Below, piece by piece: positions 9,987 to 64,000 of a stretch of DNA of 64,000 bases. Each line of letters starts with the position of its first letter. The first letter of the stretch is position 1. The notes under the pieces were generated by a model. It was given only the letters and a program-made list of their open reading frames with translations, was not told where the DNA came from and searched no databases. The position numbers were made by a program, and so were the translations under genes. The DNA comes from Candidatus Longimicrobiales bacterium M2_2A_002 (lineage in GTDB: Bacteria > Gemmatimonadota > Gemmatimonadetes > Longimicrobiales > RSA9): contig JBPRGE010000058.1 in assembly GCA_051418035.1 (NCBI GenBank), forward strand, positions 11,135 to 75,134. Direction: 5' to 3'.

Positions 9987-10250
9987 CTACCAGACCTGGC
10001 CGTGGCACGAGAAGCAGCTCGGCTGCCCACTGGACCCGCCCATGAGGTCCTGGCCGTGACACGCGGTGCAGTTGGCCTCCGGGTCCGAGAACCCCGGTGC
10101 GTGGGCAACACCATCCTGGTTGACGGTGTGGCCCTGCGGCGCGTCGGGCGGCAGGGTGGGATCGTCGTCGCCGCACGCGGCGAGCGCCGTGACGGCCAGG
10201 GCGAGGACGACCGCAGACAGAAGTGCGCGGAGTGAGATCGTTTCATGCAT
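9987..10250 (-). CDS. small di-haem c-type cytochrome lipoprotein
   Basis: ORF 9987..10283 with the start moved to ATG 10250. Lipobox LAVTALAAC. Two CXXCH motifs (CTACH, CFSCH). Confidence 0.6.
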   Translation of the reverse strand: MHETISLRALLSAVVLALAVTALAACGDDDPTLPPDAPQGHTVNQDGVAHAPGFSDPEANCTACHGQDLMGGSSGQPSCFSCHGQVW

Positions 10251-10416
10251 GGCGGGGACCCCCCGGTAGAAGTGAGCCAACAATCTTGCGTCGGTGCGGG
10301 AAGCTGGTCCAGAGTTTCGGTCCGTGAGCGGGCGGGCGTTGACACGCGGCCGACGTCCTGCGACCTTGCGTCAAGGCGAAAAGCTCCGGCACGGCCGGAA
10401 CCAGTAACGAAACCGG

Positions 10417-24510: not shown

Positions 24511-26286
24511 TCATCCCGTGGCCGGCACCCGGTCCCGGAGCCGCCGCAGCCAGAGGTAGCCGACAGCCGCGGCGGCCCCGTTGGCGACGGCCACACCGGG
24601 CCGGAGCAGCACGGCCCCGCCCACGGCAAACATGAGACCGAACAGGACCAGGAGTCCAGCGGCCACCCGCCGCAGGTCCCGGCCCAGGTCCTGGGCGGGG
24701 GTGAGCCCCGTCCGGGCCCGCTGCCGGACCCAGCCGGGGCCGCCGGGCCGGACCCGGCGGTAGAAGCCGTCCAGCGTCGCGTCGCTCTCCGGCCGGGTCA
24801 GGAGCATGACCGGGACCCACACCGCCAGCGTGATCCCGGCGGTGACCACGAGCCGGAGCCCGAAGTCGTCGATCCGGAGCGTGTAGACCGGGTTGTCCAG
24901 CGACGTGAGCGCGCCGACCACGAACCCGGCGACCATCGCCGACAGCTCGGCCCAGGCGTTGATCCGCCACCAGTACCAGCGGAGGATCAGCACCAGCCCC
25001 GGCCCTGTGCCGACGGCCAGGATCAGCCGGTAGACCGTGGTCACACTGTCGGCGTAGAACGCGGCGGTGGCGCCGAGCACGGTGACCAGCACCGACGCCA
25101 TCCGGGCGAACCAGACCAGCTCGCGATCGTCCGCCTCCGGCCGGACGAACCGTGCGTACAGGTCGTTGGTGATATAGCTGGCGGCCCAGTTGATGGCCGT
25201 CGAGACGGTCGACATGAATGCGGCCACCAGCGAGGCCACCACGAGCCCCAGGATCCCGGCGGGGAGGAAGTCGAGCATGAGACGGGGGTAGCCCAGCTCC
25301 GGGTCGTCCAGATCGGGGTAGACCACCAGCGCCACCACCGCCACCACGACCCACGGCCATGTACGGACGACGTAGTTCATGATGTTGAAGAACCAGGCCG
25401 CCTTCTCGGCGTCCGCCTCCGTTCGGACCGCCGACAGCCGCTGGATGAACTCGCCACCGCCATCGCTGCGCCGGAACGCCCACCAGAGGATCGCCACGTA
25501 GCTGAAGAAGGTGAGGGCGCTGATCCCGGCCGCCTTCGACCAGCCGATCAGCGACTCGCCCCCGAACTCGAGCGGCGTGAAGCCGAGCACGTCGAAGTCG
25601 GTCAGTCGCTGTGCGCCCGCCACCACCTCGCCCATCCCGCCGACGTGCGCCACGGCCACCACCGCCACGACAATGGCGCCCGCGAGCCCCAGGAAGAACT
25701 GGAAGAAGTCGGTGGCGACCACGCCCCAGAGGCCGGCGATCCCGGCGTAGAGGAGCACGAAGACCGCCACGCCGATCACGGTCCACAGCTTGGCGGCGGC
25801 GCCGAGCTCCAGCCCCAGCGACGGGAAGACGCCCAGCGCGTCCACCACCTTCACCATCGCCAGCATGGCGTAGCCGATCCCGATGGGACCGATCACGACC
25901 GCGAAGAGGAACCCCTTGGCCGCCCGGAGCACCGCCGCGGGCCGGCCACCGTACCGGATCTCCGTGAGCTCGTTGTCGGTGACGATCTCCGCCCGACGCC
26001 ACAGTCGGGCGAAGACGTAGATCAGGATCACGTGGGCGATGGCGTACCCCCACCACTCCCAGTTCCCGGCGATCCCCCGGGTGCCCACCACCCCCGCCAC
26101 GTAGAGCGGTGTGTCGATGGAGAACGTGGTCGCCGCCATGGACGTCCCGGCCAGCCACCACGGGAGCGTCCGCCCCCCCACGAAGAAGTCGACCATACTC
26201 CCGCTGGCGCGCCGGGCGAGGTAGATGCCGAGCGCCAGCGTCACCAGCATGTAGCCGCCGACGATCGCGAAGTCTAGAGGGCTCAC
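24511..26286 (-). CDS. sodium:solute symporter (SSF) family transporter
   Basis: 591 aa, ~13 TM. N-terminus DFFVGGRTLPWWLAGTSMAATTFS is typical of SSF. GTG start. Confidence 0.85.
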   Translation of the reverse strand: MSPLDFAIVGGYMLVTLALGIYLARRASGSMVDFFVGGRTLPWWLAGTSMAATTFSIDTPLYVAGVVGTRGIAGNWEWWGYAIAHVILIYVFARLWRRAEIVTDNELTEIRYGGRPAAVLRAAKGFLFAVVIGPIGIGYAMLAMVKVVDALGVFPSLGLELGAAAKLWTVIGVAVFVLLYAGIAGLWGVVATDFFQFFLGLAGAIVVAVVAVAHVGGMGEVVAGAQRLTDFDVLGFTPLEFGGESLIGWSKAAGISALTFFSYVAILWWAFRRSDGGGEFIQRLSAVRTEADAEKAAWFFNIMNYVVRTWPWVVVAVVALVVYPDLDDPELGYPRLMLDFLPAGILGLVVASLVAAFMSTVSTAINWAASYITNDLYARFVRPEADDRELVWFARMASVLVTVLGATAAFYADSVTTVYRLILAVGTGPGLVLILRWYWWRINAWAELSAMVAGFVVGALTSLDNPVYTLRIDDFGLRLVVTAGITLAVWVPVMLLTRPESDATLDGFYRRVRPGGPGWVRQRARTGLTPAQDLGRDLRRVAAGLLVLFGLMFAVGGAVLLRPGVAVANGAAAAVGYLWLRRLRDRVPATG

Positions 26287-26377
26287 GGGGCGACCTCAGG
26301 CACGGCGGTTGCACCCGTTGGGGCCGGGCGTCAGGATACCGAACCAAACGGAACACTGAGGCAGGCGGGGAGGCATT

Positions 26378-27055
26378 GTGATAGGCGACCTGTTCTATCG
26401 GCTGGGTACGGTGGCGGGGACGGGGCTCGGCGTGATCCGGAGCCGGATCCCGCCCGTCGACGACGGTGCCGGCCCCGCCGGCTCCGACCCGGATGATACC
26501 GGTGGCGCCGCCGAGGACGAAAGCGGCGGGGGCCCGGAGGACGGCGACTTCCTGGTCGATTCCATCCTCGGCGGCGCCGCCGCCTGGGTGGTGAAGACGG
26601 CGCTCCGGCCGAAGTCCGTCTCCTGGCCGCGGGTCGTGGTGGCGGGGATCGGCGCCACCGTCCTCGCGGACCTGGCGGCGCGCACGCTGGGCTCCGACTC
26701 CGACGACCGCAGCCGGCCGTACGGCGAGGACCCGGACGCGCTGCTGGTCCGCCTCGGGTCCGGGATCGCCATGGCCGCAGGATACGCCGCGCTCCTGTAC
26801 CCCCGCCTCCCGGGCTCGCCGATGACGAAGGGCCTGATCTTCGGAGCCATGGAGGTCGCCGCAGCGCCCCACGGCGGGCTCGTCCGGGTCGCCACCGACA
26901 CGCCGGGCCTCAAGTTCCCGCTCAAGGACCTGGCCGTCCCCATCGACGACGACGCCGGCCCGCTGGCCAATGTGGCCTTCGGCGTGGGGCTCGGGCTCCT
27001 GTACCGCCCGCCGCTGCACGACGACAGCCACGACCACGAGGACCAGGACGAATAG
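26378..27055 (+). CDS. hypothetical membrane-associated protein
   Basis: 225 aa, GTG start, high GC3. The overlapping antisense ORF 26395..27081 is S/P/R-rich and implausible. Confidence 0.5.
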   Translation: MIGDLFYRLGTVAGTGLGVIRSRIPPVDDGAGPAGSDPDDTGGAAEDESGGGPEDGDFLVDSILGGAAAWVVKTALRPKSVSWPRVVVAGIGATVLADLAARTLGSDSDDRSRPYGEDPDALLVRLGSGIAMAAGYAALLYPRLPGSPMTKGLIFGAMEVAAAPHGGLVRVATDTPGLKFPLKDLAVPIDDDAGPLANVAFGVGLGLLYRPPLHDDSHDHEDQDE

Positions 27056-51438: not shown

Positions 51439-53121
51439 GTGAGCATCCCTTCCTTCCTGCGACGCCTGTGGCCCGGCCGCCGAGGCGAAGCCCCGAGCAC
51501 CTCCGACGCCCTCGAGCTCTCTCGAGAGCGTTTCGAGCGTATCGTGGAGATCGCCGCCGACGCCATCATCTCCGTCGACGAGGATCACTCGATCATCCTG
51601 TTCAACCGGGGCGCCGAGGAGATCTTCGGATACGACCGCGACGAGATCCTGGGCCGCTCGCTCGACCTCCTGCTCCCGCCCCGGTTCCGGCTGCACCACG
51701 CCGCGCACCTCGACCGCTTCGCCGACGGTCCCGAGGCGGCCCGCCACATGGGCCAGCGCCGGGAGATCGCCGGGCTCCGGAAGGATGGGCGCGAGTTCCC
51801 CGCCGAAGCCTCCATCTCCCGGCTCGACTCGCCGGACGGCCGCATCCTCACGGTCGTGCTCCGGGATGTCACCGAGCAGAAGAAGGCGGAGCAGACGCAG
51901 CGGTTCCTGGCCAATGCGAGCTCCGTGCTGGGACGGTCGCTGGACTACGAGGACACCATGGCCGGGCTCGCGCGGATCGCGCTGCCGCACCTTGCCGACT
52001 GGTGCGTCATCGATGTCGTCTCCGACGACGGGCTGGTCCGGATCGGGGCGGCGCACGCGGATCCCGACCTGGAGCCGTACGCCGGGACGCTCAGGAACTA
52101 CCCGCCGGATCCGGCCCGGCCCCATCCCACGCTGACCGTCCTGGAGACGGGCGAGACGGAGCTGATCGAGGAGGTCACCGACGAGTTCCTCCGTGGCATC
52201 GCCGCCGACGGGGAGCACCTCGCGGCGATCCGCCGCCTCGGCATCGCCTCCCTCCTCGTCGTCCCGCTGGTGGCCCGCGACCGGACGCTGGGCGCGTTCG
52301 CGCTGGTCTCCAGCGACCCGGCCCGCCCGTTCGCACCCGACGATGTGCTCCTCGCCCAGGAGCTCGGGCGCCGCGCCGCGCTGGCCGTCGACAACGCCCG
52401 GCTCTACCGGGAGGCCCGGGACGCCATCGCCGCCCGGGACGAGGTCCTCGGCGTGGTCTCCCACGACCTCGGCAACCCGCTCAGCGCGATCCGGGTGGCC
52501 GCGCGAGTCATGGACCGGCTCCTGGAGGGCGGGGGCGTGGAGGCGGCCCGCGAGCAGGTCGAGTCGGTCCGCCAGGCCGCAGCCCAGATGGAGCGGCTGA
52601 TCCGCGACCTCCTGGAGATCCGCCGGATCGAGTCCGGCCGGCTCCGGCTCGTCCGGCGCCCCGAGCAGGTCTCCGAGCTCGTCGACCAGGCCACCCGCTC
52701 CATGCGCGGGCTCGCCCGTGAGCGGGAGGTGCGCCTCGAGCGGTCGCTCACCGACGGGCTGCCGAAGCTGATCCGCGTCGACGCCGATCGGGTCCACCAG
52801 ATCTTCTCCAACTTCATGGGCAACGCGCTGAAGTTCACGCCACCGGGCGGCACCATCACCGTCGGCGCCGAGCCGGCCGGCGAGCACGTGCGCTTCTGGG
52901 TCCGGGACACGGGCCCGGGCATGGCCGAGGAGGATCTGCCCCACGTCTTCGACCGGTTCTGGCAGGCCCGGCAGCAGGGCAGCCACGGGGTCGGTCTCGG
53001 CCTCGCCATCGCCCGGGGCCTGACCGAGGCCCACGGCGGGGAGGTCCGCGTCGAGAGCCGCCCCGGCGAGGGCTGCACCTTCTACTTCGACCTGCCGGCC
53101 GACGGCGCGGCGGACGCATAA
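51439..53121 (+). CDS. PAS-GAF sensor histidine kinase
   Basis: 560 aa, GTG start. PAS region: ERFERIVEIAADAIISVDEDHSIILFNRGAEEIFGY. GAF-like middle. H-box SHDLGNPLSAI. ATPase boxes GNALKFTPPGG, DTGPGM, GVGLGLAIARG. Confidence 0.9.
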   Translation: MSIPSFLRRLWPGRRGEAPSTSDALELSRERFERIVEIAADAIISVDEDHSIILFNRGAEEIFGYDRDEILGRSLDLLLPPRFRLHHAAHLDRFADGPEAARHMGQRREIAGLRKDGREFPAEASISRLDSPDGRILTVVLRDVTEQKKAEQTQRFLANASSVLGRSLDYEDTMAGLARIALPHLADWCVIDVVSDDGLVRIGAAHADPDLEPYAGTLRNYPPDPARPHPTLTVLETGETELIEEVTDEFLRGIAADGEHLAAIRRLGIASLLVVPLVARDRTLGAFALVSSDPARPFAPDDVLLAQELGRRAALAVDNARLYREARDAIAARDEVLGVVSHDLGNPLSAIRVAARVMDRLLEGGGVEAAREQVESVRQAAAQMERLIRDLLEIRRIESGRLRLVRRPEQVSELVDQATRSMRGLAREREVRLERSLTDGLPKLIRVDADRVHQIFSNFMGNALKFTPPGGTITVGAEPAGEHVRFWVRDTGPGMAEEDLPHVFDRFWQARQQGSHGVGLGLAIARGLTEAHGGEVRVESRPGEGCTFYFDLPADGAADA

Positions 53122-53203
53122 TCCCTTCCCACCGGGTGGTGAATCAGCCGGAACCGCACTACATTGGCGGCGAACCAACCGGGAAACTCTTCGGATAGCC
53201 TCG

Positions 53204-53863
53204 ATGCCCAAGAACATCACGATCCTTCTCGCGGACGACCACGGCGTGCTCCGGGCGGGCCTCAAGTCCCTCCTGGACGCGGAGCCCGATCTCCAGGTGG
53301 TCGGCGAGGCCGATACCGGTGAGGACGCCATCGCGAAGGTCAAGGAGATCGAGCCGGACATCGTGGTCATGGACCTCTCCATGCCCGGGATGGGCGGGAT
53401 GGAGGCGACCCGCCGGATCGCCGCCATGGACAGCCCGACCAAGGTTCTGGTCCTGACCATGCACGCGGAGGAGGAGTTCCTGCTGCCCGTCCTGGACGCC
53501 GGCGGCAGCGGGTTCGTGCGCAAGACCAGCGCCGACGAGGACCTGACCCACGCGATCCGGACGGTGGCCCGCGACGAGGTGTTCCTCTACCCCAGCGCCG
53601 CGAAGCTCCTGCTCGAGCGCTACAAGGACGCCGATGCCGACGAGATGCGCGGTCCGCTCAGCAAGCTCACGGAGCGGGAGCGCGATGTCCTCGCCATGAC
53701 CGCCGAGGGGTTCAGCTCCAGCGAGATCGGCGAGAAGCTCTTCATCAGCCCGAAGACCGTCGACACCTATCGGAGCCGGATCATGGACAAGCTCCAGCTC
53801 CGGCACCGCTCCGAGCTCGTCCGCTTCGCGCTCCAGACCGGGCTCCTCCGCGCCGAGCAGTAG
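53204..53863 (+). CDS. NarL/FixJ (LuxR-type HTH) response regulator
   Basis: Receiver ILLADDH...VVMDLSMPGMGG. HTH LTERERDVLAMTAEGFSSSEIGEKLFISPKTVDTYRSRI. Confidence 0.9.
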   Translation: MPKNITILLADDHGVLRAGLKSLLDAEPDLQVVGEADTGEDAIAKVKEIEPDIVVMDLSMPGMGGMEATRRIAAMDSPTKVLVLTMHAEEEFLLPVLDAGGSGFVRKTSADEDLTHAIRTVARDEVFLYPSAAKLLLERYKDADADEMRGPLSKLTERERDVLAMTAEGFSSSEIGEKLFISPKTVDTYRSRIMDKLQLRHRSELVRFALQTGLLRAEQ

Positions 53864-53870
53864 CCCGCAG

Positions 53871-53886
53871 CCGGCCGCGCGGCCGG
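53871..53886. terminator. perfect 16-bp GC palindrome ccggccgcgcggccgg between convergent genes
   Basis: Read directly. It sits between the response-regulator stop (53863) and the kinase stop (53909). Confidence 0.35.
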
Positions 53887-53908
53887 GGCCCCACGGGGCA
53901 GCGCCGTC

Positions 53909-55006
53909 CTACCTGAAGGGGTCCTCGGGCAGCGACGCGGCCGCGCCCGCCGCCGGCACGGCCGCCCGGACCGTCGTCCCCTGCCCGACCACGCTCTCGA
54001 CCTCGACGCGGCCGCCGACGTACTCGGCCCGTTCCCGCATCCCGAACAGCCCGAGCCCGTGGGTGTCGTCGTGCTGGGCCATCACGGCGTCCACATCGAA
54101 CCCGACGCCGTCATCGGTCACGGTGGCCACGACGACGCCATCGCGCCACTCGAGCCGGACCTGGATCCGGCGCGCGGCGCTGTGCCGAAGCGCATTGGTG
54201 ATCGCCTCCTGGACGATCCGGTAGAGGGCGAGCTCGGCCTCCGGCGACTCCAGCCGACCCACCCCCCCGGTCTGCACCTCCACCGGCGCGACCGCGGCAT
54301 CCGTGATGTGGCGGACGTGGGACTCGATGGCGGGCCCCAGTCCCAGCTCGTCCAGTGCCGGCGGCCGCAGCCCCTGGGCGTAGCGGCGGAGCCCGTCGGC
54401 GGTGTCCGCCAGCTCCTTGCGGATCTCCTCCAGCACGGCGTCCTTCGCCGCCGCGTCATCGAGACCCCGGGCCAGCCGCAGCCGCATGAGGATCGCCGCC
54501 AGCCGCTGTGAGGCGTCGTCGTGGAGCTCGAGCGAGATCCGCCGCCGCTCCTCCTCGGCCGCGTTGAGCGCGCTCGCCGCCACATCCCGGAGCCGGGCCC
54601 GGTAGTCGCCGAGGCGGTCGAGCATGGAGTTCGTCGCCCGCGTCAGTCCCTCCATGTCCCGATCGGCCAGCGGCGATGGCGGGACCCGGGCCTCCACATC
54701 GCCCTCCTGCACCCGGTCCACCGTCCGCTTCAGGAGCCGGAGCGGCTCGAGCGCCAGCTGGATGATCACCGCGTTCACCGCCAGGCTGACCACCGCGCCC
54801 GCCACGGCCACGGCGATCATCGGCGGAATCGACGAGCCCGTGCTGCCCAGGTGCACGGCGAGCCAGGTGGCCAGCAGCGAGAAGACGAGCACGATCACCG
54901 CGTTCGCCGCCAGGATCTTGTAGAAGAGCGGGACCCGGAGCAGCCAGTCGCCGGGCCCCCGCTCGCGGTCGGGTTCCAGCCGGGTTGTCTCGGGATCCGG
55001 GGGCAT
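53909..55006 (-). CDS. HisKA_3-type (NarX/DesK-like) sensor histidine kinase with HAMP-like linker
   Basis: ORF 53909..55057. The start is ATG 55006 or GTG 55057. Two TM segments. H-box ISLELHDDASQRLAA. ATPase region VTDDGVGF...GLGLFGMRERA. Confidence 0.85.
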   Translation of the reverse strand: MPPDPETTRLEPDRERGPGDWLLRVPLFYKILAANAVIVLVFSLLATWLAVHLGSTGSSIPPMIAVAVAGAVVSLAVNAVIIQLALEPLRLLKRTVDRVQEGDVEARVPPSPLADRDMEGLTRATNSMLDRLGDYRARLRDVAASALNAAEEERRRISLELHDDASQRLAAILMRLRLARGLDDAAAKDAVLEEIRKELADTADGLRRYAQGLRPPALDELGLGPAIESHVRHITDAAVAPVEVQTGGVGRLESPEAELALYRIVQEAITNALRHSAARRIQVRLEWRDGVVVATVTDDGVGFDVDAVMAQHDDTHGLGLFGMRERAEYVGGRVEVESVVGQGTTVRAAVPAAGAAASLPEDPFR

Positions 55007-55123
55007 GGGCTGTGGAGGCGGACCTTCGGGGTGGCGCTGCGGCGCGGACGAGCGCACTCCAGCGGTACGGACTCTTTGAACGTAACGGGAACACAGCCCG
55101 CCGTCAGTCAGGCGACTCCCGTG

Positions 55124-55171
55124 CCCGCCGGTGGGGTGTTGCCCCGCAGGACCCCGCTCCCCACCGGCGGG
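55124..55171 (-). terminator. 13-bp perfect-stem hairpin downstream of the amidohydrolase gene
   Basis: cccgccggtgggg (55124-55136) pairs with ccccaccggcggg (55159-55171). The stem starts 13 nt after the stop at 55184. Confidence 0.5.
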
Positions 55172-55183
55172 TCGGCCCGGGCC

Positions 55184-56893
55184 TCAGTCGTCTGTGCCCC
55201 GCTCGTAGAGCACCCGCCCCCCGACGATCGTGTAGTCGACCTCCGCCTCCCGGACCTCATCGACGGGCACCGTCATGATGTCGGTGGACAGGACCACGAT
55301 ATCGGCGAGCTTCCCGGGCGTGAGCGAGCCCTTGATGTCCTCCTCGAACGCCGCGTACGCGTTGTTCATCGTGTAGGAGCGGAGCGCCTGGGCCCGGGAG
55401 AGCCGCTGGTCCGGATCGAAGATGGTCCCGTCCGGCAGCTCCCTCGCGATGGTCGCCCAGAAGCTCGGGATCGGGTCCACGTCCTCGACGGGCGCGTCGG
55501 TCCCGTTGCCGACCACGGCACCCGAGGCCCAGAGGTCCTGCCACCGGTACGCGCCCTCATCGGTCCGCTCCTGGCCGAGGCGCGTGGGGACCCACGGCCG
55601 GTCCGATGTGGCGTGGATCCCCTGCATGGCCGCGATCACGCCGAGCTCGGCGAACCGGTCGATGTCCGACGGGTGGAGATGCTGGGCGTGCTCGATCCGC
55701 CAGCGCGGATCCGCTACCTCCGGGTACTCCTCGTACGCTCGCTCGTAGATATCGAGCACCTCCCGGTTCGCACGGTCCCCGATGGCGTGGACGTTCAGCT
55801 GGAACCCGTGCTCCATGGCCAGCTCGGCCGTATGCTCGATCTCACGGACCGGCTCCAGCACCAGCCCCGTGCTCGACGGCATGTCGGCGTACGGCTCCAG
55901 CATCCACGCGCCGTGGGAGCCCAGCGCGCCGTCGATCTGCTTCTTGATCGATCGGACGGTCAGGTGGTGGTCGGCCACACCGACCATCCTGTAGTCCGGG
56001 AGCCGGACCTCGAGCTCGGGATTGGGCTCCCGGACCATCACGTACAGCCGGACCGGCAGCTCGCCCGCCTCCGCCAGCCGGCGGTAGCCGTCGATGGTCC
56101 CGAACGAGGCCCCCGCGTCGTGGAAGGTGGTCACCCCCTTCGAGAGGAGCTCCCCGGCGGCCAGCGACACTACCCGGCGGAAGCGCTCCTCCCGCTCGGC
56201 CTCCGTCATCTCCTCCTCGGACCGCGCCCGTGCCTCCCGCACCGGCGCTTGCGCATTCTCCCGGAGCAGCCCGGTGGGCTCGCCCCCGGCAGCCCGGACG
56301 ACCTCGCCGCCCTCGGGCGGCCGGTAGTCCCGGTCGATCCCGGCGAGCTCCATCGCCCGCGCGTTCACGAATGCCGCGTGCCCGCTGGCATGGGTCAGCA
56401 CTACCGGGTTGTCCGGCGACACCGCGCTCAGCGTGTGATGCGTGGGCACGCCCTCGACGACGCCCTCCGGCACCGCGTCCCACTTCTCCTGGTGCCACCC
56501 GCGCCCCACGATCCACTCGCCCGCCGCCGCCTCGGCCGCGGCGTCCTCGACCATGGCCACGATCTCCTCCCATGTCCGGGCCGTGGTCAGGTCCAGATCC
56601 AGCTGCGCGTTGCCCACGCCCATGAAGTGGCCGTGCCCCTCGATGAACCCCGGGATCGCCAGCCGCCCGTCCAGGTCGATCACCCGGGTCTCCGGACCGA
56701 CGTGGGCGTCCACCTCCTCATCGGTGCCCACCAGCATGATCCGATGGCCCAGGATCGCGACCGCCTCCGCCTCCGGGCGCGTCGAGTCCACAGTCACCAC
56801 GTGCCCACCACGCAGTACGAGGTCCGCCGCCTGCTCCGGGGTCTCGGCGCACCCGACCAGGAGCGCCGCCGCCAACACGATCCACCGTCTCAT
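55184..56893 (-). CDS. Amidohydro_3-type metal-dependent hydrolase, lipoprotein
   Basis: ORF 55184..57028 with the start moved to ATG 56893. Lipobox AALLVGC. Motif GFIEGHGHF, plus HAIGDRA. Confidence 0.8.
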   Translation of the reverse strand: MRRWIVLAAALLVGCAETPEQAADLVLRGGHVVTVDSTRPEAEAVAILGHRIMLVGTDEEVDAHVGPETRVIDLDGRLAIPGFIEGHGHFMGVGNAQLDLDLTTARTWEEIVAMVEDAAAEAAAGEWIVGRGWHQEKWDAVPEGVVEGVPTHHTLSAVSPDNPVVLTHASGHAAFVNARAMELAGIDRDYRPPEGGEVVRAAGGEPTGLLRENAQAPVREARARSEEEMTEAEREERFRRVVSLAAGELLSKGVTTFHDAGASFGTIDGYRRLAEAGELPVRLYVMVREPNPELEVRLPDYRMVGVADHHLTVRSIKKQIDGALGSHGAWMLEPYADMPSSTGLVLEPVREIEHTAELAMEHGFQLNVHAIGDRANREVLDIYERAYEEYPEVADPRWRIEHAQHLHPSDIDRFAELGVIAAMQGIHATSDRPWVPTRLGQERTDEGAYRWQDLWASGAVVGNGTDAPVEDVDPIPSFWATIARELPDGTIFDPDQRLSRAQALRSYTMNNAYAAFEEDIKGSLTPGKLADIVVLSTDIMTVPVDEVREAEVDYTIVGGRVLYERGTDD

Positions 56894-57194
56894 GTCAATC
56901 TCCGGGATGATGCTTCGAAGCCTGATAGGGACCCGCCACTCGCCAAGATGGCCCGCCCGCCCGCCGCCCGAAAGGACCCACGGCCCGGCGTTCTCCACCC
57001 GGATGCCCTCTCGAGTGAGAACCCGCACGCCAGAGGATCAGCGGCCAGGCCGTTCACGATCCGGGCGCCCCCTCCTGACGTTCTCCCGCAGAAAGAGGCC
57101 CGCAGCGATGTCCGCATCGCCACCGGCCTCCCCCCTCGAGCCCTGCCGCGACCCCTGAATCCCGGGGCAGCCCGGCTCCACCAGAGACCTCCCC

Positions 57195-58532
57195 CTACGG
57201 CTCCCCGAGCACCGTCCGGTGGAAGTCCTCCGGCATGTCACGCAGGTCCCACATCTGGGTGGACTCGTAATGGCAGTACGAGCACAGCCCCATGTGCGGC
57301 GCCCGGCCCAGATCGGGCGACGACGGCGGCTGGCGTCCCGCCACCGCGTACGCCTCCTGGATCCGGTCCACGGCGTCCCGCATCAGCTGGTCGCTGAGCT
57401 CCAGGTTGTGCTGACCACCGGCCTGCCGGACCAGCACGACCATCTCCCGGGCCTGCTCGACCAGCGCCCTTGCGCTGTCGGAAGTCGGTGCCACCTGTCG
57501 CGACGCCCGATCCAGGTACTGGCCCACCGCGGTCAGCCGCATCCGCAGCCCCTCCTTCCACCAGGGGAGCACCTGCTCGTACTCCGCCGGGTGACAGCCG
57601 GAGCAGGCCTCGGCCTGGCCGCGGATCGGCTGCGCCGGGTCCCGGACCTCAGGCGGGATATGGCACGACCGGCAGGTGATCCCCGCCAGGAACTTGGCGC
57701 TCGGCGTCACGCCGCTGTCGGGCCGGATCCCCAGCACCAGCCGCTGCTGCGGGGAGTGTACGCCCTCGTGGCACGCCACGCACAGCTCGCTCGTGGACCA
57801 CCCCTCGCGGTCGTTCACCGCCACCCCATGCTCCCGGGCGTGGCAGTCGGAGCATACCAGCTGCACCACCGAGCTCATGGCCCGCACCTCGTGGACGTCC
57901 TCCTGGTGACACGACGTGCACGTGACACCGTCGTGGATCGGATGCAGGTCCCGTCCCACCGCCGCCTCGTTCAGCACCTCCATGTCGTCGTGGCACTGGC
58001 GGCACTTCAGCCCGGAGACGTCGGTCTGCGGCGACGCCACATCGTAGTGGCACCGGACACAGCCGATCTCGAGCCACGGAAGATCCGCATGGGCCACCAC
58101 GACGCCCTGGTCCGTGGCCTCGTCGTGGTCCGACTCCGCGTGGCAGAGCCGGCACTCCTGGGCCTCGGCGCTGGTCACCTCGCTTATATGGCAGAGGGCG
58201 CACGCGTCCACCGACGCCTCCAGCGGCGCCTCTCCCGTCTCGTGGGTGTGGCACCCGGCGCACGTCGGCTGGATGTCGCCGCTCTCGCCGTGGTCCCGGT
58301 GCGGGAAGGTGACGGTGGCCACCTGCACCTCCTCCGGCCCACCCTGGGTGTGGCACCCCGAGCCCGTGCACGACGCCTCCGGTACCGTCGCCCGGCCACG
58401 CTCCCCCTGCGGACCCTGGTGGCACGCCGCGCATGCCAGGTCCGCGTGGGGTGCGTCGCCGGGAGTCGGCGTCCCCTCGTCGCATGCTCCGAGGAGCGCG
58501 ACGACCAATCCGATCAGCAGAACACGGCCCAT
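57195..58532 (-). CDS. multihaem c-type cytochrome lipoprotein (12 CXXCH + 1 CX4CH)
   Basis: ORF 57195..59024 with the start moved to ATG 58532 (MGRVLLIGLVVALLGAC). Haem motifs: CAACH, CTGSGCH, CAGCH, CALCH, CRLCH, CVRCH, CRQCH, CTSCH, CSDCH, CVACH, CRSCH, CSGCH, CSYCH. Confidence 0.85.
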   Translation of the reverse strand: MGRVLLIGLVVALLGACDEGTPTPGDAPHADLACAACHQGPQGERGRATVPEASCTGSGCHTQGGPEEVQVATVTFPHRDHGESGDIQPTCAGCHTHETGEAPLEASVDACALCHISEVTSAEAQECRLCHAESDHDEATDQGVVVAHADLPWLEIGCVRCHYDVASPQTDVSGLKCRQCHDDMEVLNEAAVGRDLHPIHDGVTCTSCHQEDVHEVRAMSSVVQLVCSDCHAREHGVAVNDREGWSTSELCVACHEGVHSPQQRLVLGIRPDSGVTPSAKFLAGITCRSCHIPPEVRDPAQPIRGQAEACSGCHPAEYEQVLPWWKEGLRMRLTAVGQYLDRASRQVAPTSDSARALVEQAREMVVLVRQAGGQHNLELSDQLMRDAVDRIQEAYAVAGRQPPSSPDLGRAPHMGLCSYCHYESTQMWDLRDMPEDFHRTVLGEP

Positions 58533-59413
58533 AGCACCATCCCAATCGTTGCGAGTCCAACCCCCCAGGCGGCGAAGCCGAATACCGCGGCGAACAGCGT
58601 CTCCCCTCGCGTGGGTGACGGGGCCCGTCGGTCCTTTACCGGACGCTCCGAGACCGGCTCGTCCGCCCTGGCTTCGATCGCCTCCATCATCCGCGGGTGC
58701 TCCTCCTCCATGTACTCCAGCGTGGCCCGGCCCGTGAACATGACCGCGTCGAGCGGGAACTTGTCCGGGCGCAGGTGCACGTTGAAGAAATGGATTGTGA
58801 AGAGGAACGCCGCGGCCAGCATGGCCTCCACGCCATGGAACACCGTCGCGACATTGAACATCCAGCCGGGCATGTACTGCCCGAAGAACTCCGGGAACCA
58901 GAGCATGAAGCCGGATCCACCGATCACGAAGAACCCCCAGACCTCGCCCAGGTAGTCCATCTTCTCCAGATAGCCGTAGCGCCCGAACTTCGGTGGACGG
59001 CCCTTCCCGAAGTAGTACTTCCACTGCTGCATGAAGTCCCGGGCGTCATCCGGGTGCGGGAGCAGCGAGTCGCTGCCCCAGAAGAACCGGCTCTTGTTGT
59101 CCATCTTCAGGAACCGGTAGGCCATGTACACGATGTGGATCAGCGTGTACCCGATCATGAACGCCGCCGCGGAGCGGTGGATCAGACCGGCCCGCTGCAC
59201 GCCGCCCCAGAACTGCATCAGCGGCTCCGAGAACGGCGCGCAGGAGAAGCGCAGCGGGATGCCCGTGAGGATCAGCGTGTAGAACGAGATGATCGCGAAT
59301 GCGTGGAACAGCCGGTCCCACGTGTTGAACCGCCAGATGAAGGGGCCGTGGCCCCGCTGGGCCGAGTCCAGCGGGACATCGCCCCGGTCGCGTGCTGCCG
59401 TCGATTCACTCAC
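58514..59413 (-). CDS. b-type cytochrome membrane subunit (FdnI/PhsC/Ni-hydrogenase cyt b-like)
   Basis: 299 aa, ~5 TM. His residues sit in TM helices (WDRLFHAFAIISFY, LIHRSAAAFMIGYTLIHIVY, ATVFHGVEAML, FTIHFFNVH). GTG start. Overlaps both neighbouring genes. Confidence 0.75.
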   Translation of the reverse strand: MSESTAARDRGDVPLDSAQRGHGPFIWRFNTWDRLFHAFAIISFYTLILTGIPLRFSCAPFSEPLMQFWGGVQRAGLIHRSAAAFMIGYTLIHIVYMAYRFLKMDNKSRFFWGSDSLLPHPDDARDFMQQWKYYFGKGRPPKFGRYGYLEKMDYLGEVWGFFVIGGSGFMLWFPEFFGQYMPGWMFNVATVFHGVEAMLAAAFLFTIHFFNVHLRPDKFPLDAVMFTGRATLEYMEEEHPRMMEAIEARADEPVSERPVKDRRAPSPTRGETLFAAVFGFAAWGVGLATIGMVLWAVFC

Positions 59414-60554
59414 CGCCGCCTCCCATCTGTTCTTCGGCCTTTCGACGATCGATCATGATCCGGACCCACCAGAGGAGCGTGTGCAGGCCGAACACTGTCA
59501 GCGTGCCGATCAGCAGTGTGTTCATGAACCAGAAGGAGTAGAAGATGTAGGGGTTCCGCTCCCGGTTCATCGGCTCCGGGTGGGAGTCGTACGCCACGAA
59601 GGACTCCCGGGCGTGCTCGTGACACTCGCCGCACGTGGCCACCAGGTTATCCTCGTGGACCCGGGAGGCCGGGTTGTCCGCCGGCAGCATCTCGTGGGCG
59701 CCGTGACACTCGGCGCACGTGGCCGCGGCCTCCGAGCCGAGCCGTGTGGCCTTGCCGTGGTAGGTGCCCCGGTACGTCTCCGCCGCCCTCTCGTGGCAGG
59801 TGGCGCACCGCTCCACGGCGATCTGGATCATCCCCACATCATCGGCGCCCAGCACCGGGTGCGCGCCGTGACACGACGTGCAGGTCGGGGGCGAGTCGTC
59901 GCCCTCCCAGTCGCCGGACCGAAGCGTCCGCCCATGGATCCCGCCCTCGAACACGGCCGCCACCGAGTCGTGACACGTGCCACAGACGCCGGGCTGCGCT
60001 TGCGGCGCCATCCACGAGCCCGGCTCGTCCACCGGTGTGGTGCCGTGAGGGTCGTGGCAATCGTAGCAGCCGGCGTGGTCCTGGTGGTGCGAGTTCACCG
60101 GCAGCCGCTGGGTCTCGTGACAGCCGACGCACCTCCCGCTCATGGCGATCAGCGCGGGGCCGTCATCCAGGGAGTCCGCCGGGGCGATGTCGTGCACCCC
60201 GTGGCACTCGCTGCACGCCACGGCGTTCCCGCTCTCGCCCCCGCTGTGGGAGCCGCCCTCCCAGATATCGCCGACGTCCTCGTGGCAGCTGGCGCAGCTC
60301 GCCGTGGTGCCCTGCCCCTGGTGGGGGAACCGGCCGAAGCCGGTGTGGCACTCGCTGCACCCCATGCCCGCGTGACCCGAGGCGTCGAGCATCCCGGGCG
60401 GGACCAGCATGGCGCGGGCCTCCTCCAGGGACGTGACGTACTGTCGCAGGAGCTCGAGCTCGCCGTGGCAGCGCTGGCAGTCCAGGTCGCCCTGGGCCTG
60501 TACCGGTACCGCCATCAGGAGCACGGCCGTGGCGATCAACACACCGCGTTTCAT
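59406..60554 (-). CDS. 11-haem c-type cytochrome with signal peptide and C-terminal TM anchor
   Basis: Part of ORF 59406..61679, starting at ATG 60554 (MKRGVLIATAVLLMAVPVQAQG). Haem motifs: CQRCH, CSECH, CASCH, CSECH, CVGCH, CYDCH, CGTCH, CTSCH, CATCH, CAECH, CGECH. C-terminal helix IFYSFWFMNTLLIGTLTVFGLHTLLWWV. Confidence 0.85.
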   Translation of the reverse strand: MKRGVLIATAVLLMAVPVQAQGDLDCQRCHGELELLRQYVTSLEEARAMLVPPGMLDASGHAGMGCSECHTGFGRFPHQGQGTTASCASCHEDVGDIWEGGSHSGGESGNAVACSECHGVHDIAPADSLDDGPALIAMSGRCVGCHETQRLPVNSHHQDHAGCYDCHDPHGTTPVDEPGSWMAPQAQPGVCGTCHDSVAAVFEGGIHGRTLRSGDWEGDDSPPTCTSCHGAHPVLGADDVGMIQIAVERCATCHERAAETYRGTYHGKATRLGSEAAATCAECHGAHEMLPADNPASRVHEDNLVATCGECHEHARESFVAYDSHPEPMNRERNPYIFYSFWFMNTLLIGTLTVFGLHTLLWWVRIMIDRRKAEEQMGGGGE

Positions 60555-61906
60555 TCGTCTATTCCGTATTTGTTGAGACGGTTCCGCACCTGGTGTCGAC
60601 TCATCCCCAGCAGCCTCCCCGCTTCGGTTCGATTGCCTTCCGCCCGGCGCAGCGCCTCCTCCAGGAGGGCACGCTCGAGCTCTTCGAAATCCACCCCTTC
60701 CGGGCCCAGCTCCACCGGGAGCTCCGACGACCCCCGCTCCCGGCCCCGGATCGGCGGCGGCAGCATCTCCGCCGTGAGCACGTCGCTGTCGGCCAGCAGC
60801 ACGCTGCGCTCGATCAGGTTCCGCAGCTCCCGCACGTTCCCGGGCCAGCGGTACTCCTTCAGGAGCTCCATGGCCTCGTCGTCGATCCCGGTGATCGTCT
60901 TGCCGAACTGGTTCGCGAACTCCTCGACGAACGTCTTCACCAGCGCCGGGATGTCCGACGTCCGCTCCCGCAGCGGCGGCAGCCGGATCGGGAAGACCCG
61001 GAGCCGGTAGTAGAGGTCCTCGCGGAACCGGTCCTCCTCCACCTCCTGCTCGAGGTCCCGGTTCGTGGCCGCGACGAGCCGGGCGTCCACCTCCAGGTCC
61101 TTCGTGCCGCCCACCCGCCGGAACCTCTTCTCCTCGATGAACCGGAGCAGCTTGCCCTGGAGCCCGAGCGACAGCTCGCCGATCTCGTCCAGGAACAGCG
61201 TCCCGCCCTCGGCCAGCTCCACCAGCCCCCGCTTCATCGTCCGGGCGTCCGTGAACGCCCCCTTCTCGTGACCGAACAGCTCCGACTCCATGACCGACTC
61301 GGCCAGCGCCGAGCACGTCACGTTCACGAACGGCCCGTCCGCCCGCTGGCTCGCCTGATGGATCGCCTGCGCCAGCATGCCTTTCCCGGTCCCCGTCTCG
61401 CCCTCCAGCAGCACTGTGGTCCCCTCCGCCGGTGCCACCCGCTTCACGAGCTCGAAGACCTCTTTCATCGCGGGGCTCCTCCCGACCACGTCGTCGCCCA
61501 GTCCCGTCTGCTCCCGGAGCGCACGGACCTCGCGCTGAAGCCGCGTCCGCTCCAGCGCGCCCTTCAGCGTGGCCGAGAGCCGGTCGAAAGAGAACGGCTT
61601 CTCCAGGAAATCGACGGCCCCGGCCCGGAGCGCGTCCACCGCCGACTGGACCGTGCCGTGCGCGCTCATCATCACGCACACCGTGTCCCCGCTCTTCGTC
61701 AGCTCCTCCAGAAGCTCCGTCCCCTCGCCGTCCGGGAGCTTGATGTCCAGGAGCGCGAGGTCCGGTGTCTGCTCTTCCAGCACCTCCCGGCCTTCCTCGA
61801 CCCGGGCGGCGGCGGTCACGACATAGCCCTCCCGCTCCAGCCGCTCGGTCGTGACCTCCCGGAGCAGGTCGTCATCCTCGAGGATCAGGATCCGCTCACT
61901 CGCCAC
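60551..61906 (-). CDS. sigma54-dependent (NtrC-family) response regulator
   Basis: Receiver ILILEDDD...LLDIKLPDG. AAA+ domain GETGTGKG, GAFTDA loop, FLDEIGEL. Fis-type HTH NRTEAGRLLGMSRHQVRNRL. GTG start. Confidence 0.9.
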   Translation of the reverse strand: MASERILILEDDDLLREVTTERLEREGYVVTAAARVEEGREVLEEQTPDLALLDIKLPDGEGTELLEELTKSGDTVCVMMSAHGTVQSAVDALRAGAVDFLEKPFSFDRLSATLKGALERTRLQREVRALREQTGLGDDVVGRSPAMKEVFELVKRVAPAEGTTVLLEGETGTGKGMLAQAIHQASQRADGPFVNVTCSALAESVMESELFGHEKGAFTDARTMKRGLVELAEGGTLFLDEIGELSLGLQGKLLRFIEEKRFRRVGGTKDLEVDARLVAATNRDLEQEVEEDRFREDLYYRLRVFPIRLPPLRERTSDIPALVKTFVEEFANQFGKTITGIDDEAMELLKEYRWPGNVRELRNLIERSVLLADSDVLTAEMLPPPIRGRERGSSELPVELGPEGVDFEELERALLEEALRRAEGNRTEAGRLLGMSRHQVRNRLNKYGIDE

Positions 61907-63473
61907 CGCTCACCTCCTGGTCGGCGTCGGATCCCGCAGCTCCCGCATCCGACGCGTCCACTCTCTGCGACCCGGACCCCGAGGCACCTCGTCGATCCGG
62001 CCTCGCTCCCTTCGGCCCCGCATGCGACTTCGCCTCCGCCTCCCCGCCCCTCCGGGCCTGGCCGGCGGAGCGCTCCGCCGGCGTGGACGCAGCCCGCTGC
62101 GTCGGGAAGCTGAGCCGAACGGTCGTGCCGCGGCCCGGCTCGCTCCGGATGTCCAGCTTGCCGGCGTGGGCAGACATGACCCGGGCCACCAGCGGCAGAC
62201 CCAGCCCCGTCCCGGCCGGCTTCGTCGAATAGAACGGCCGGATGATCTTCTCGACCTCCTCCTCGGGGAGCCCCGGGCCGGTGTCGGTGAACTCGGCCAC
62301 CACGCGATCGCCGTCCGCGGACAGCTGGATCTGCAGGGTGCCGCCGTCCTCCATGGCTTCCAGCGCATTCAGCATGACGTTCAGCGCGGCCTGCTCGATC
62401 CGATGCTGGTCCCCCAGCAACGGCGGGAGGTCGTCCTGGTATGTGCGACGGATCGTGTAGCTCGACGTGTCCATGAGCCCCGCCAGCTGACCGAGGGCCT
62501 CGTCGACCGCGTCCCGCAGGTTGACCCGGTCGCTCTCCAGCTCGACCGGTTTCGCCAGCGCGAACAGGTCCTGCATCGTCTCCGTCAGCTTCCCCAGCTG
62601 CCCGTCCACCGCGTCCAGCAGCGACTGGGCCTGGGTGTTCAGCTCGTACTCCTGCTCCAGGAGCGAGACCGCCGAGCGGATCGATGCCAGCGGCCGCTTG
62701 AACTCGTGGGCCATCTCCGCCGCCATCTCGCCCACCTCCGCCAGCCCCGCCTGGCTGGCCAGCCGCTGCTCGTGCTCCCGCTCCTTCCGGACCAGGTCGG
62801 CCACCGACTCCTCCAGGCCGCCCAGCTCGTCGGACCGGCGCGGGCCCTCCGGCCCCAGGATGTCCACCACCCGCTCGATCGGCGTGACCACTTCCCGCTC
62901 GAGCATCGTCGCCACGATCAGGATCACCGCCGCCAGCGAGCCGATGAGCAGGAGCAGCCCCAGCCGCGCCGCCCGGTCCATCGCGGCCTCCAGCGGCGCC
63001 AGCGAGAAGTCGACCTCCAGGATCCCCGCGCCCCCCGCGCGGAGCGGGAGGAACGCGTTCACCTGCTCGCCGCCCTCCACCACCCGCGCCGTGCCCCGGC
63101 TCGGCAGCTCCCTGGGCGACGGCAGCCACACACCGGCCGGACGCGACCCTTCCTCCGACCGGATCGTCGAGACCAGGACCCGGCCGGCCGTGCCGTAGAC
63201 CCGGGCCGCCGTGATCGATTCCAGCTCGACCAGCTCCCGCAGCGCCGACCGGGCCCGACCCGGCTGCCCTTCCGTGATCGCCGACTCCACCGACGAACGC
63301 ACGGAGGCCGCGGCCAGCAGCGCCTGCTGCTCCGCCGCGGCCACCGACTCCTGCCGCCAGTACCGGAACGTCAGCGAAGAGGCGACACCGAACACCACGA
63401 CGGCCGTCCCCACCGCCGTTATGATCAGCTTGGTCCGCAACGGCTGCTCACTCAGCCGTCGGATCCAACCCAT
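61896..63473 (-). CDS. NtrB-like sensor histidine kinase with two-TM sensor region
   Basis: 525 aa. H-box EMAHEFKRPLASI. ATPase boxes NVMLNALEA, DTGPGL, GTGLGLPLV. GAAGGAGG upstream of the ATG. Confidence 0.9.
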   Translation of the reverse strand: MGWIRRLSEQPLRTKLIITAVGTAVVVFGVASSLTFRYWRQESVAAAEQQALLAAASVRSSVESAITEGQPGRARSALRELVELESITAARVYGTAGRVLVSTIRSEEGSRPAGVWLPSPRELPSRGTARVVEGGEQVNAFLPLRAGGAGILEVDFSLAPLEAAMDRAARLGLLLLIGSLAAVILIVATMLEREVVTPIERVVDILGPEGPRRSDELGGLEESVADLVRKEREHEQRLASQAGLAEVGEMAAEMAHEFKRPLASIRSAVSLLEQEYELNTQAQSLLDAVDGQLGKLTETMQDLFALAKPVELESDRVNLRDAVDEALGQLAGLMDTSSYTIRRTYQDDLPPLLGDQHRIEQAALNVMLNALEAMEDGGTLQIQLSADGDRVVAEFTDTGPGLPEEEVEKIIRPFYSTKPAGTGLGLPLVARVMSAHAGKLDIRSEPGRGTTVRLSFPTQRAASTPAERSAGQARRGGEAEAKSHAGPKGARPDRRGASGSGSQRVDASDAGAAGSDADQEVSGGE

Positions 63474-63623
63474 GCCACCTCCTTCGTCGACCCCCGACCG
63501 CGCGATTTCGCGCGGTGCTCACCCTGAATGTGACGTTCGCCGATTCTGACGGTAGAGGGCAACCCCCATGGTGTCGCGCGGGGAATTTCCCGACACGCGC
63601 GCGGGCGCCGCCCACACACGGGA

Positions 63624-63652
63624 GCGGCGGCCCCCCGGAAGGGGACCGCCGC
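63624..63652 (-). terminator. GC-rich hairpin downstream of the CPBP-like gene
   Basis: gcggcggcccccc-ggaa-ggggaccgccgc. It lies 28 nt after the stop at 63680. Confidence 0.4.
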
Positions 63653-63679
63653 CCTGATGTCCGTGCCGAACCCGGGATC

Positions 63680-64000
63680 TCAGCCTGCGATCAGAAGCAG
63701 GGCACTGAGTGCAGTGGCGTGCGCGACCAGCGCCGTGCCGAACCCCCGCTTCCAGAAGAGCCAGCCGAAGGCGATGGCCGGGATCAGCGCGGTGACCGCG
63801 AGGAACCCGACGGCCGTGGCCGCGCTCGGGAACCCGATCTCGAGCACACCCGGCAGGTAGATCAGCGCCTGCACCACCGCGGCCACGGCCACCGCGATAC
63901 CGGCCGCCCGGCCGGCGCTCACGTGGAACTCCCGCAGGAGCAGCCACGCCACGGCCGTCATCAGGAACAGCCGGAGCAGCACCTCATCCACGAGCGCCGT
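63680..64000 (-). CDS. CPBP-family intramembrane protease-like protein, C-terminal part (gene continues past right edge)
   Basis: The frame is open to position 64000. The tracked M at 63991 is a GTG inside ...TALVDEVLLRLFLM (EExxxR-like CPBP motif). Polytopic C-terminus. Confidence 0.5.
   Translation of the reverse strand, partial: TALVDEVLLRLFLMTAVAWLLLREFHVSAGRAAGIAVAVAAVVQALIYLPGVLEIGFPSAATAVGFLAVTALIPAIAFGWLFWKRGFGTALVAHATALSALLLIAG

Follow-up and report, generated by a model that had tools for sequence, protein, structure and literature searches.

A putative CbcL-type menaquinol:multihaem cytochrome c oxidoreductase in two polypeptides, encoded with a sigma-54 regulatory pair in a Longimicrobiales genome

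Overview

The 64,000-nucleotide stretch of Candidatus Longimicrobiales bacterium M2_2A_002 analysed here (contig JBPRGE010000058.1, positions 11,135 to 75,134 of the forward strand; referred to below as the window) carries on its reverse strand five overlapping genes that encode a sensor histidine kinase (HK), a sigma-54 enhancer-binding protein (EBP), an anchored multihaem cytochrome c (C1), a cytochrome b (B) and a multihaem lipoprotein cytochrome c (C2) (Table 1). We propose, with a probability of about 0.72, that this unit encodes a menaquinol:multihaem cytochrome c oxidoreductase of the inner membrane that is inducible and belongs to the CbcL/MtrH/MtoC family, with C1 and B as the two polypeptides of the enzyme and C2 as a dedicated periplasmic partner. 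We regard the menaquinol oxidoreductase as real and as one that probably exports electrons. The source organism, to a protein of which B is 100% identical, is represented by a metagenome-assembled genome of 3.35 Mb and 70.4% G+C that was recovered in the Odiel saltmarshes, from hypersaline soil contaminated with metals. The name 'Ca. Terrihalomicrobium hispanicum' has been proposed for this organism, which encodes the menaquinone pathway in full (PMC12942990).

A preliminary description of the same DNA, made from the sequence alone, had listed the five genes with their coordinates, overlaps and haem counts, all of which hold. Its reading of the unit, as a multihaem conduit in the periplasm that is linked to quinol and equipped with two-component/sigma-54 regulators of its own, is supported by the present analysis. 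The family, its wide distribution and the sigma-54 control of a sister system have already been published. What is new is the split architecture, the OcwA-like 13-haem partner, a conserved upstream gene (gene X), the HK/EBP cassette and the phylum.

C1 and B correspond to a CbcL-type protein divided over two genes

Members of the CbcL/MtrH/MtoC family (Zacharoff 2016; Zhong & Shi 2018) combine nine or more c-haems with six transmembrane (TM) helices and an FdnI/HydC-like dihaem cytochrome b, and are known from 15 phyla, with one Gemmatimonadetes entry (PMC6295460; 10.1101/2021.04.15.440034). The 'unrelated GC-rich lineage' of the preliminary description thus overstated the novelty of the find. 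C1 has a signal peptide, 11 CXXCH motifs, of which four take the CxxCHxxH form, and one C-terminal TM helix that contains His358. The Pfam families Cytochrome_C7, c3_2 and Paired_CXXCH_1 match both C1 and C2; in the Pfam searches that had been suggested beforehand, Paired_CXXCH_1, Ni_hydr_CYTB and Sigma54_activat were all matched.

A profile of B, searched against species-representative genomes of many phyla, finds at least 505 loci, 80 of which were retrieved (designated L and a number); these loci, one further locus and the window make up the family set (n = 82). B has 1077 homologues. A homologue of C1 lies directly upstream of B, or is fused to it, in all 80 retrieved loci, and co-occurrence, which the preliminary description had wished to see checked, extends to the complete order HK-EBP-C1-B-C2 in at least eight Gemmatimonadota loci. 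C1 and B form a single open reading frame (ORF) in 49 of the 82 relatives and separate genes in the other 33. The fused ORF reads from a multihaem c domain through one TM helix with a conserved His and a cytoplasmic linker to a five-TM b domain, and the break between C1 and B falls in this linker, after TM1. An assembly frameshift is ruled out as the cause of the break by its recurrence in 33 independent genomes. The split form is scattered over the tree of the family, and it is therefore taken as a real, recurrent gene fission or fusion.

B shares 41% identity with the b domain of the fused Deferrisomatales protein of L057 (E = 3e-66), and C1 shares 31% with its c domain and anchor (E = 6e-38). 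The CXXCH motifs of the L057 protein are at 35, 57, 84, 107, 131, 159, 187, 229 and 257, those of CbcL (GSU0274) at 34, 57, 82, 105, 129, 158, 186, 229 and 257 (Table S2 of PMC6295460). In a Rhodoferax protein (L036) the CXXCH spacing fits that of MtrH Rfer_4073 from the same table. The c domains of the family hold 3-23 CXXCH motifs (PMC6295460), and the spacing in C1 (40, 21, 27, 28, 21, 28, 34, 25, 30, 28) resembles that of 11-haem fused members in Table S2 of PMC6295460, such as OIR15077 (41, 21, 30, 28, 44, 28, 30, 25, 34, 28). Searched against the PDB, C1 gives weak generic multihaem matches only (28pb_A and NrfB). As a catalytic cytochrome of the NrfA, HAO or Otr type C1 was rejected, there being no clean fit in motifs or Pfam matches. 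None of the best 120 protein matches to the fused protein of L029 is named Geobacter.

CbcL is a menaquinol oxidase, the c domain of which reduces the periplasmic protein PpcA. Its His residues are placed one each in TM1-3 and two in TM5 (bioRxiv 10.1101/2021.04.15.440034). C1 and B together reproduce this pattern and share with the family an N-terminal periplasmic multihaem c part followed by six TM helices (one in C1 and five in B), a dihaem b and the lack of any Fe-S, Mo or flavin partner. Unlike CbcL, the two parts are encoded by genes that overlap by 8 bp and do not form a single polypeptide; C1 has 11 haems versus nine in CbcL; a 13-haem lipoprotein specific to Gemmatimonadota follows, and the membrane-protein gene X accompanies the unit; and the pair of HK and sigma-54 EBP stands in front, whereas cbcL of Geobacter is constitutive.

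The system invoked in the preliminary description was Geobacter CbcBA. Its statement that CbcBA depends on a sigma-54 activator is correct: cbcBA of Geobacter sulfurreducens (GSU0593-0594) is sigma-54-dependent, and its operon includes the RpoN-dependent response regulator GSU0596 (10.1101/2021.04.15.440034). The co-encoded activator is for this reason not the oddity that it had been held to be. The window unit resembles CbcBA in this respect, in having separate genes in the order c then b, in anchoring the c subunit by a C-terminal helix with a His, and in the role proposed here, CbcBA being a quinol oxidase for extracellular acceptors. Against this, CbcB has four TM helices and CbcA seven haems, compared with five and 11 for B and C1; CbcB and the b domain of CbcL are not similar in sequence according to Joshi et al. 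(2021), while B is clearly of the CbcL type; and the window unit has no divergent bccR gene and no sigma-54 promoter was found for it. This separation from CbcBA is based on the published description rather than on the sequences of GSU0593 and GSU0594. The pair is nearer to CbcL because TM count (1+5) and His pattern match CbcL, while CbcBA is 1+4. The closest characterised relative, as judged by the fusions, the TM count and the identity to the L057 protein, is CbcL/MtrH/MtoC. By homology, C1 is assigned to the c domain and first TM helix of CbcL and B to its TM2-TM6, which makes the pair a predicted two-polypeptide member of this family and not CbcBA proper.

Fold and putative haem ligands of B

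The AlphaFold2 model of B has a mean predicted local distance difference test score (pLDDT) of 80.8. In a Foldseek search its best match, and the sole one among solved structures, is FdnI (1kqf_C, TM-score 0.78). The profile alignment places His37, His79 and His193 of B on His18, His57 and His155 of FdnI. His169 of FdnI aligns with His213 of B in the profile, whereas the helix spacing favours His208. Both of these residues are found where TM4 reaches the cytoplasm, the place of His164 and His169 in FdnI, and His208 lies 15 residues below His193, the spacing that is expected for an inner-haem ligand. His37, His79, His193 and His208 are kept in all 81 aligned sequences across phyla and His213 in 79 of these; the His of the C1 anchor is kept in 78 of 82 relatives. 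The impression that B looks like a b-type cytochrome is borne out by these four residues at ligand positions, and the objection that it might lack haem ligands falls away.

On the basis of the model, B is likely to be an FdnI-type dihaem cytochrome b with His37, His79, His193 and His208 as putative haem ligands. The seven conserved membrane His residues (His358 of the anchor; His37, His79, His93, His193, His208 and His213 of B) could possibly hold a third b-haem. The likeness to FdnI (1KQF) comprises the fold, the three aligned His residues and the cytoplasmic loop at the quinone site: B has a conserved cytoplasmic loop, FGRYGYxEK, which appears to align with the quinone-site loop on the cytoplasmic side of FdnI. 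B differs from FdnI by a fifth TM helix and a cytoplasmic insert of ~60 amino acids, the identity is only 20%, and its partner is a multihaem cytochrome c and not an Fe-S/Mo enzyme.

C2 combines a c3/c7-like chain with an OcwA-like module

C2 has a lipobox (LLGAC), 12 CXXCH motifs and one CX4CH motif (CTGSGCH). Across 36 homologues none of the 13 haem motifs varies, and neither does Cys17 of the lipobox. There are 384 homologues, and all those that carry an organism name are from Gemmatimonadota; among the 80 loci retrieved C2 follows B in Gemmatimonadota only.

The N-terminal part of C2 is c3/c7-like. Residues 175-411 align by profile with OcwA of Thermincola potens (6i5b_A; E = 4.2e-14) over five CXXCH motifs and a three-helix bundle, that is the NrfA-type C-terminal module, covering OcwA haems 5-9 and including the 'HN..L' helix motif. 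One last haem follows after the helix bundle. OcwA is a nonahaem cell-surface terminal reductase of Thermincola that reduces nitrite and hydroxylamine (PMC6703420, PMC9250108). C2, in contrast, comes from a diderm and is a lipoprotein with 13 haems. Its N-terminal half is of the c3/c7 and not of the c554 kind, it has one more haem after the bundle, and at the aligned position of the distal His-His pocket of OcwA it carries an additional CXXCH. A Foldseek search with the C2 model has NrfA (1qdb) as top match, a weak one (probability 0.99, E = 0.07); given the low mean confidence of the model, the remaining matches are meaningless.

The preliminary description had considered that the cytochromes might fall cleanly into a catalytic haem family of the NrfA, Otr or HAO type. 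C2 comes near to this in its OcwA/NrfA-type C-terminal half, yet the fit is not clean: there is no CXXCK motif in C2, the pocket is replaced, its 14 conserved non-motif His residues are enough for bis-His ligation of all 13 haems, and it has no match to the Pfam c552 or HAO families at E < 0.01. Clean assignment to such a family was rejected, and the first three of these points speak against a catalytic haem. Judged by its sequence, C2 shares its scaffold with a catalytic family, the pocket of which is not conserved, and is not a generic c3-type cytochrome.

The regulatory pair HK and EBP

The TM helices of HK (residues 16-34 and 173-191) flank a periplasmic domain of ~138 amino acids and are followed by HisKA (6.9e-10) and HATPase_c (1.1e-24) domains; there is also a weak match to CHASE8. 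The periplasmic domain has no Cys and therefore no haem c. HK orthologues in L003-L013 are 39-66% identical and occupy the same position. EBP has all three NtrC-type domains, the receiver domain (Response_reg, 5.8e-27), the AAA+ domain (Sigma54_activat, 4e-68, 228.8 bits) and the Fis-type helix-turn-helix (HTH_8, 1.2e-11), and every NCBIfam equivalog score of EBP is under its cut-off. None of the five proteins is placed in a named NCBIfam equivalog.

In a Syntrophaceae locus (L027:2312-6364 (-)) the periplasmic domain of the kinase carries a CXXCH motif, and this kinase may be a haem sensor.

Conserved neighbourhood

The order HK-EBP-C1-B-C2 is kept in L003, L004, L006-L009, L011 and L013, from both Longimicrobiales and Gemmatimonadales. 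The five-gene arrangement is not due to chance, because the order recurs in at least eight other Gemmatimonadota loci. In nine of nine Gemmatimonadota loci, gene X is found by tblastn directly upstream of HK or, in L001, of C1. Gene X was missed in the preliminary description; it is a conserved membrane-protein gene at the window end. Its product is polytopic with a CPBP-like EExxxR motif, and the full-length orthologue from L001 (405 amino acids; L001:7347-8564) has no Pfam match. It is probably an accessory component of the locus. L001 has no HK or EBP and shows the order X-C1-B-C2, which suggests that HK and EBP were inserted as a cassette specifically before C1.

In L001, L011, L015, L017 and L030, C1-B adjoins a cluster of multihaem cytochromes around a porin-like protein (L001:24-6482; L011:11180-16734 (-); downstream of B in L015, L017 and L030), which is accompanied by a tetratricopeptide-repeat lipoprotein and a monohaem cytochrome c. 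The porin-like protein has ~490 amino acids, a signal peptide, a C-terminal Y/F-x-F motif of the outer-membrane-protein type and no Pfam match. The cluster resembles a porin-cytochrome outer-membrane conduit, which supports a role of the family in extracellular electron transfer, and Gemmatimonadota may have in it an outer-membrane electron conduit that is new to description.

Second, shorter c-b modules are present at L044:4013-5957 and L009:12094-14265 (-). Their b part has no fifth TM helix and is ~30% identical to B, and the module of L009 has an EBP and a sigma-54-like site in front of it. These modules may be of the CbcBA type.

Proposed mechanism and direction of electron flow

In the proposed mechanism, B would hold two b-haems stacked across the membrane and exchange electrons with menaquinol at a site on the cytoplasmic side. 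The anchor helix of C1 would pack onto B, with the conserved anchor His near the cytoplasmic end of the helix. Electrons would then pass from menaquinol over the b-haems across the membrane to the 11-haem chain of C1 in the periplasm and from C1 to C2, with which C1 and B may form a complex. The OcwA-like C-terminal module of C2 could be the distal donor, from which the electrons would go to an acceptor in the periplasm or outside the cell, or else to an outer-membrane conduit that is encoded elsewhere. If the quinone site is on the inner side, the membrane potential would assist the outward flow, and little energy would be conserved, as has been found for CbcL and CbcBA. HK would sense a periplasmic signal and phosphorylate EBP, which would switch on the system through sigma-54. 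Gene structure, family membership by homology, the fold of B, the conserved ligand residues and the conserved synteny are established by the comparisons described above; haem occupancy, the position of the quinone site, the direction of the electrons (taken here as quinol oxidation and export), the complex with C2 and the regulatory target are inferred.

Several points weigh against this proposal. The match of B to Ni_hydr_CYTB (PF01292) is just above the cut-off (33.1 bits, cut-off 30.1), and the model of C2 (mean pLDDT 57.6) is confident in the helix bundle only (helices 315-397, pLDDT > 90) and low elsewhere. Geobacter CbcL was compared by its published motif coordinates and through the proxy orthologue L057 only, and not by its own sequence. 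The sigma-54 contact loop of EBP is GAFTDA and not GAFTGA (61246-61284 (-), residues ~208-220). This variant is kept in every Gemmatimonadota orthologue of EBP, while other EBPs in the same loci have GAFTGA, and it is also seen in the EBPs beside the fused CbcL-like genes of L027 and L053 (Thermodesulfobacteriota). No canonical GG-N10-GC site is present upstream of HK or C1 in the window, as had already been noted in the preliminary description, and no convincing -24/-12 site is found in the closest Longimicrobiales loci either; with no sigma-54 promoter detectable, EBP may therefore act elsewhere. The porin-like protein of the related loci has no relative elsewhere in the 64 kb, and the window holds no outer-membrane conduit. 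Finally, the direction of the electrons cannot be read from sequence, and MtoC members have been proposed to be quinone reductases in Fe(II) oxidisers (PMC6295460).

This last point leads to an MtoC-like alternative with reversed flow, in which C2 and C1 take electrons from a donor outside the cell or in the periplasm (such as sulfide, reduced humics, complexes of Fe(II) or, through a partner, H2) and B passes them to menaquinone on the cytoplasmic side. The system would then be one half of a redox loop of the Fdn type and generate proton-motive force. B has the FdnI fold and an FdnI-like cytoplasmic loop, and in Fdn-N (PDB 1KQF) electrons run inward to the quinone. Members of the family are found in Fe(III) reducers as well as in Fe(II) oxidisers, no sequence feature tells the directions apart, and the Longimicrobiales, mostly aerobic heterotrophs, could make use of such electrons. 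Menaquinone (about -74 mV) is however a poor acceptor for donors of the Fe(II) type, inward transfer against the membrane potential requires a low-potential donor, the members for which genetics are available (CbcL) are quinol oxidases and C2 resembles the terminal reductase OcwA; we consider reversed flow unlikely. A different role for C2, as a periplasmic enzyme of the NrfA/ONR/OcwA superfamily that reduces, for instance, nitrite, hydroxylamine, sulfite or an oxyanion of a metalloid and has C1-B as its quinol dehydrogenase, comparable to NrfH-NrfA, is very improbable. The alignment with the OcwA module and its helix bundle, the NrfA match of the model, the nitrite and hydroxylamine reduction by OcwA itself and the metal and metalloid contamination of the source soil all point in that direction, but this reading has to contend with the missing CXXCK, the CXXCH in place of the His-His pocket, the number of His residues and the lack of a c552/HAO match, and in related Gemmatimonadales loci the porin-like protein and its cytochrome cluster take the place of C2.

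It is also conceivable, if rather improbable, that HK and EBP are mere neighbours, with EBP acting on another sigma-54 promoter and the cytochrome genes being read through constitutively. Such an arrangement would account for a unit without a -24/-12 element; a strong sigma-54 site and an NrfD-family gene come after the homologous GAFTDA EBP in L027 and L053, where this EBP diverges from the CbcL-like gene, and the best sigma-54-like site of the window lies far off, at 26298-26313. It fits poorly with the 4-bp stop/start overlap between EBP and C1, with the order HK-EBP-C1 in at least eight loci from two orders, with the GGCAC-N5-TTGC element just upstream of HK in L007 and L013, and with relatives that retain X-C1-B-C2 where HK and EBP are absent. 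We therefore prefer the menaquinol oxidoreductase with its own regulatory pair. A wider proposal, that Longimicrobiales and Gemmatimonadales have a phylum-specific, sigma-54-inducible extracellular electron-transfer pathway made up of the split CbcL-type oxidase, C2, X and, in relatives, a porin-like conduit, is tentative and rather doubtful as it stands; the conduit protein in this pathway matches no Pfam family, the Mtr and Pcc porin families included.

Transcription unit and surroundings

Table 1. Features of the locus and its surroundings (window positions; -, reverse strand; aa, amino acids).
Feature	Positions	Strand	Size or structure	Assignment or remark
HK	61896-63473	-	525 aa, 2 TM	sensor histidine kinase
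EBP	60551-61906	-	451 aa	NtrC-type sigma-54 enhancer-binding response regulator
C1	59406-60554	-	382 aa	11-haem periplasmic cytochrome c, anchored
B	58514-59413	-	299 aa, 5 hydrophobic helices in model	FdnI-type cytochrome b (putative)
C2	57195-58532	-	445 aa	13-haem lipoprotein cytochrome c
Gene X, 3' end	63680-64000	-	runs off window end	conserved polytopic membrane-protein gene
X-HK intergenic region	63474-63679	-		hairpin, palindromes, GAAGGAGG Shine-Dalgarno
Strong GC hairpin after X	63622-63654	-		from RNA folding
Terminator-like long GC hairpin	57090-57135	-		~60 nt after C2 stop; folding z = -2.5
Amidohydrolase lipoprotein (Amidohydro_3)	55184-56893	-		downstream of C2
HisKA_3-type kinase	53909-55057	-		after amidohydrolase gene

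The overlaps of HK/EBP, EBP/C1, C1/B and B/C2 amount to 11, 4, 8 and 19 bp, respectively, and the 4- and 19-bp overlaps are also present in L001. The start codons chosen for the window genes agree with the N-termini of homologues. The gap between C2 and the amidohydrolase gene, estimated earlier at 300 bp, measures 301 bp, and the amidohydrolase start at 56893 is backed by the orthologue in L005. This gap, the hairpin after C2 and the strong hairpin after X fit a five-gene transcription unit, of which the hairpin at 57090-57135 is the probable 3' end. A simple terminator scan finds nothing at 57090-57135; its one match, inside B (58936-58952), was discarded as being at chance level (one found versus 0.8 expected). 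No Rfam family is matched in 53000-64000.

The two adjacent genes (amidohydrolase and X), to which this screen was confined, contain no Mo, Fe-S or porin domains, and no ORF with three or more CXXCH motifs lies outside the unit in the 64-kb window. The sole other CXXCH-bearing ORF of the window (9987-10370 (-), 127 amino acids) has two such motifs and no Pfam match. In L005, an amidohydrolase orthologue with 79% identity occupies the same place after C2.

Candidate regulatory sites

Just upstream of HK, L007 and L013 carry CGGCAC(G/A)CGGATTGCG (GGCAC-N5-TTGC). The element sits in a hairpin with compensatory changes and so could equally well be a terminator or a promoter. Directly before the fused homologue of L028 there is a 10/11 sigma-54 site, TGGCACGCTTCGTGCT.

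The best sigma-54-like site of the window, AGGCACGGCGGTTGCA (26298-26313 (+), 10/11 consensus), is intergenic. It adjoins the start of an SSF-family symporter gene (24511-26286, -) and lies upstream of an unannotated ORF of 225 amino acids (26378-27055, +). The site after the GAFTDA EBP of L027, TGGCACGGGTATTGCT, is perfect; the NrfD-family gene is found there too, and this EBP diverges from the fused CbcL-like gene.

The region between X and HK has two palindromes on the reverse strand, CCGCGCG-AAAT-CGCGCGG (63497-63516) and GTGTCGGGAAATTCCCCGCGCGACAC (63570-63600), and GTGCGC...GCGCAC-like motifs recur upstream of HK in orthologous loci. The palindromes may be operator or upstream activating sequences or may reflect mere GC-rich composition; chance is hard to exclude because CGCGCG is self-complementary. 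At L007:5451-6900 the EBP frame has no stop and continues into the part of the C1-B fusion that encodes its signal peptide (RTRMRRYGLLGLVLAAAALWAGPASA); either the fusion has its start nested in frame within the EBP reading frame, or the sequencing is in error.

Biological implications

Databases label B as 'formate dehydrogenase subunit gamma' and C1 and C2 as 'cytochrome c3 family'. Recognition of the split CbcL type corrects hundreds of such annotations, given the number of B homologues and loci found, and surveys restricted to fused proteins, like the published list, would miss ~40% of the members sampled (33 of 82 are split). With its NrfA/OcwA haem module joined to a c3-like chain, C2 is a further example for the view that multihaem cytochromes evolve by 'grafting and pruning'.

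Gemmatimonadota are an abundant but poorly cultured phylum of soils. For them, the unit offers a concrete candidate, open to testing, for a system that exports or takes up electrons in respiration, in a module that is linked to a dedicated two-component/sigma-54 switch. If the wider extracellular pathway is true, a phylum that is regarded as one of aerobic heterotrophs would include electroactive organisms that reduce metals or humics in saline soils rich in metals.

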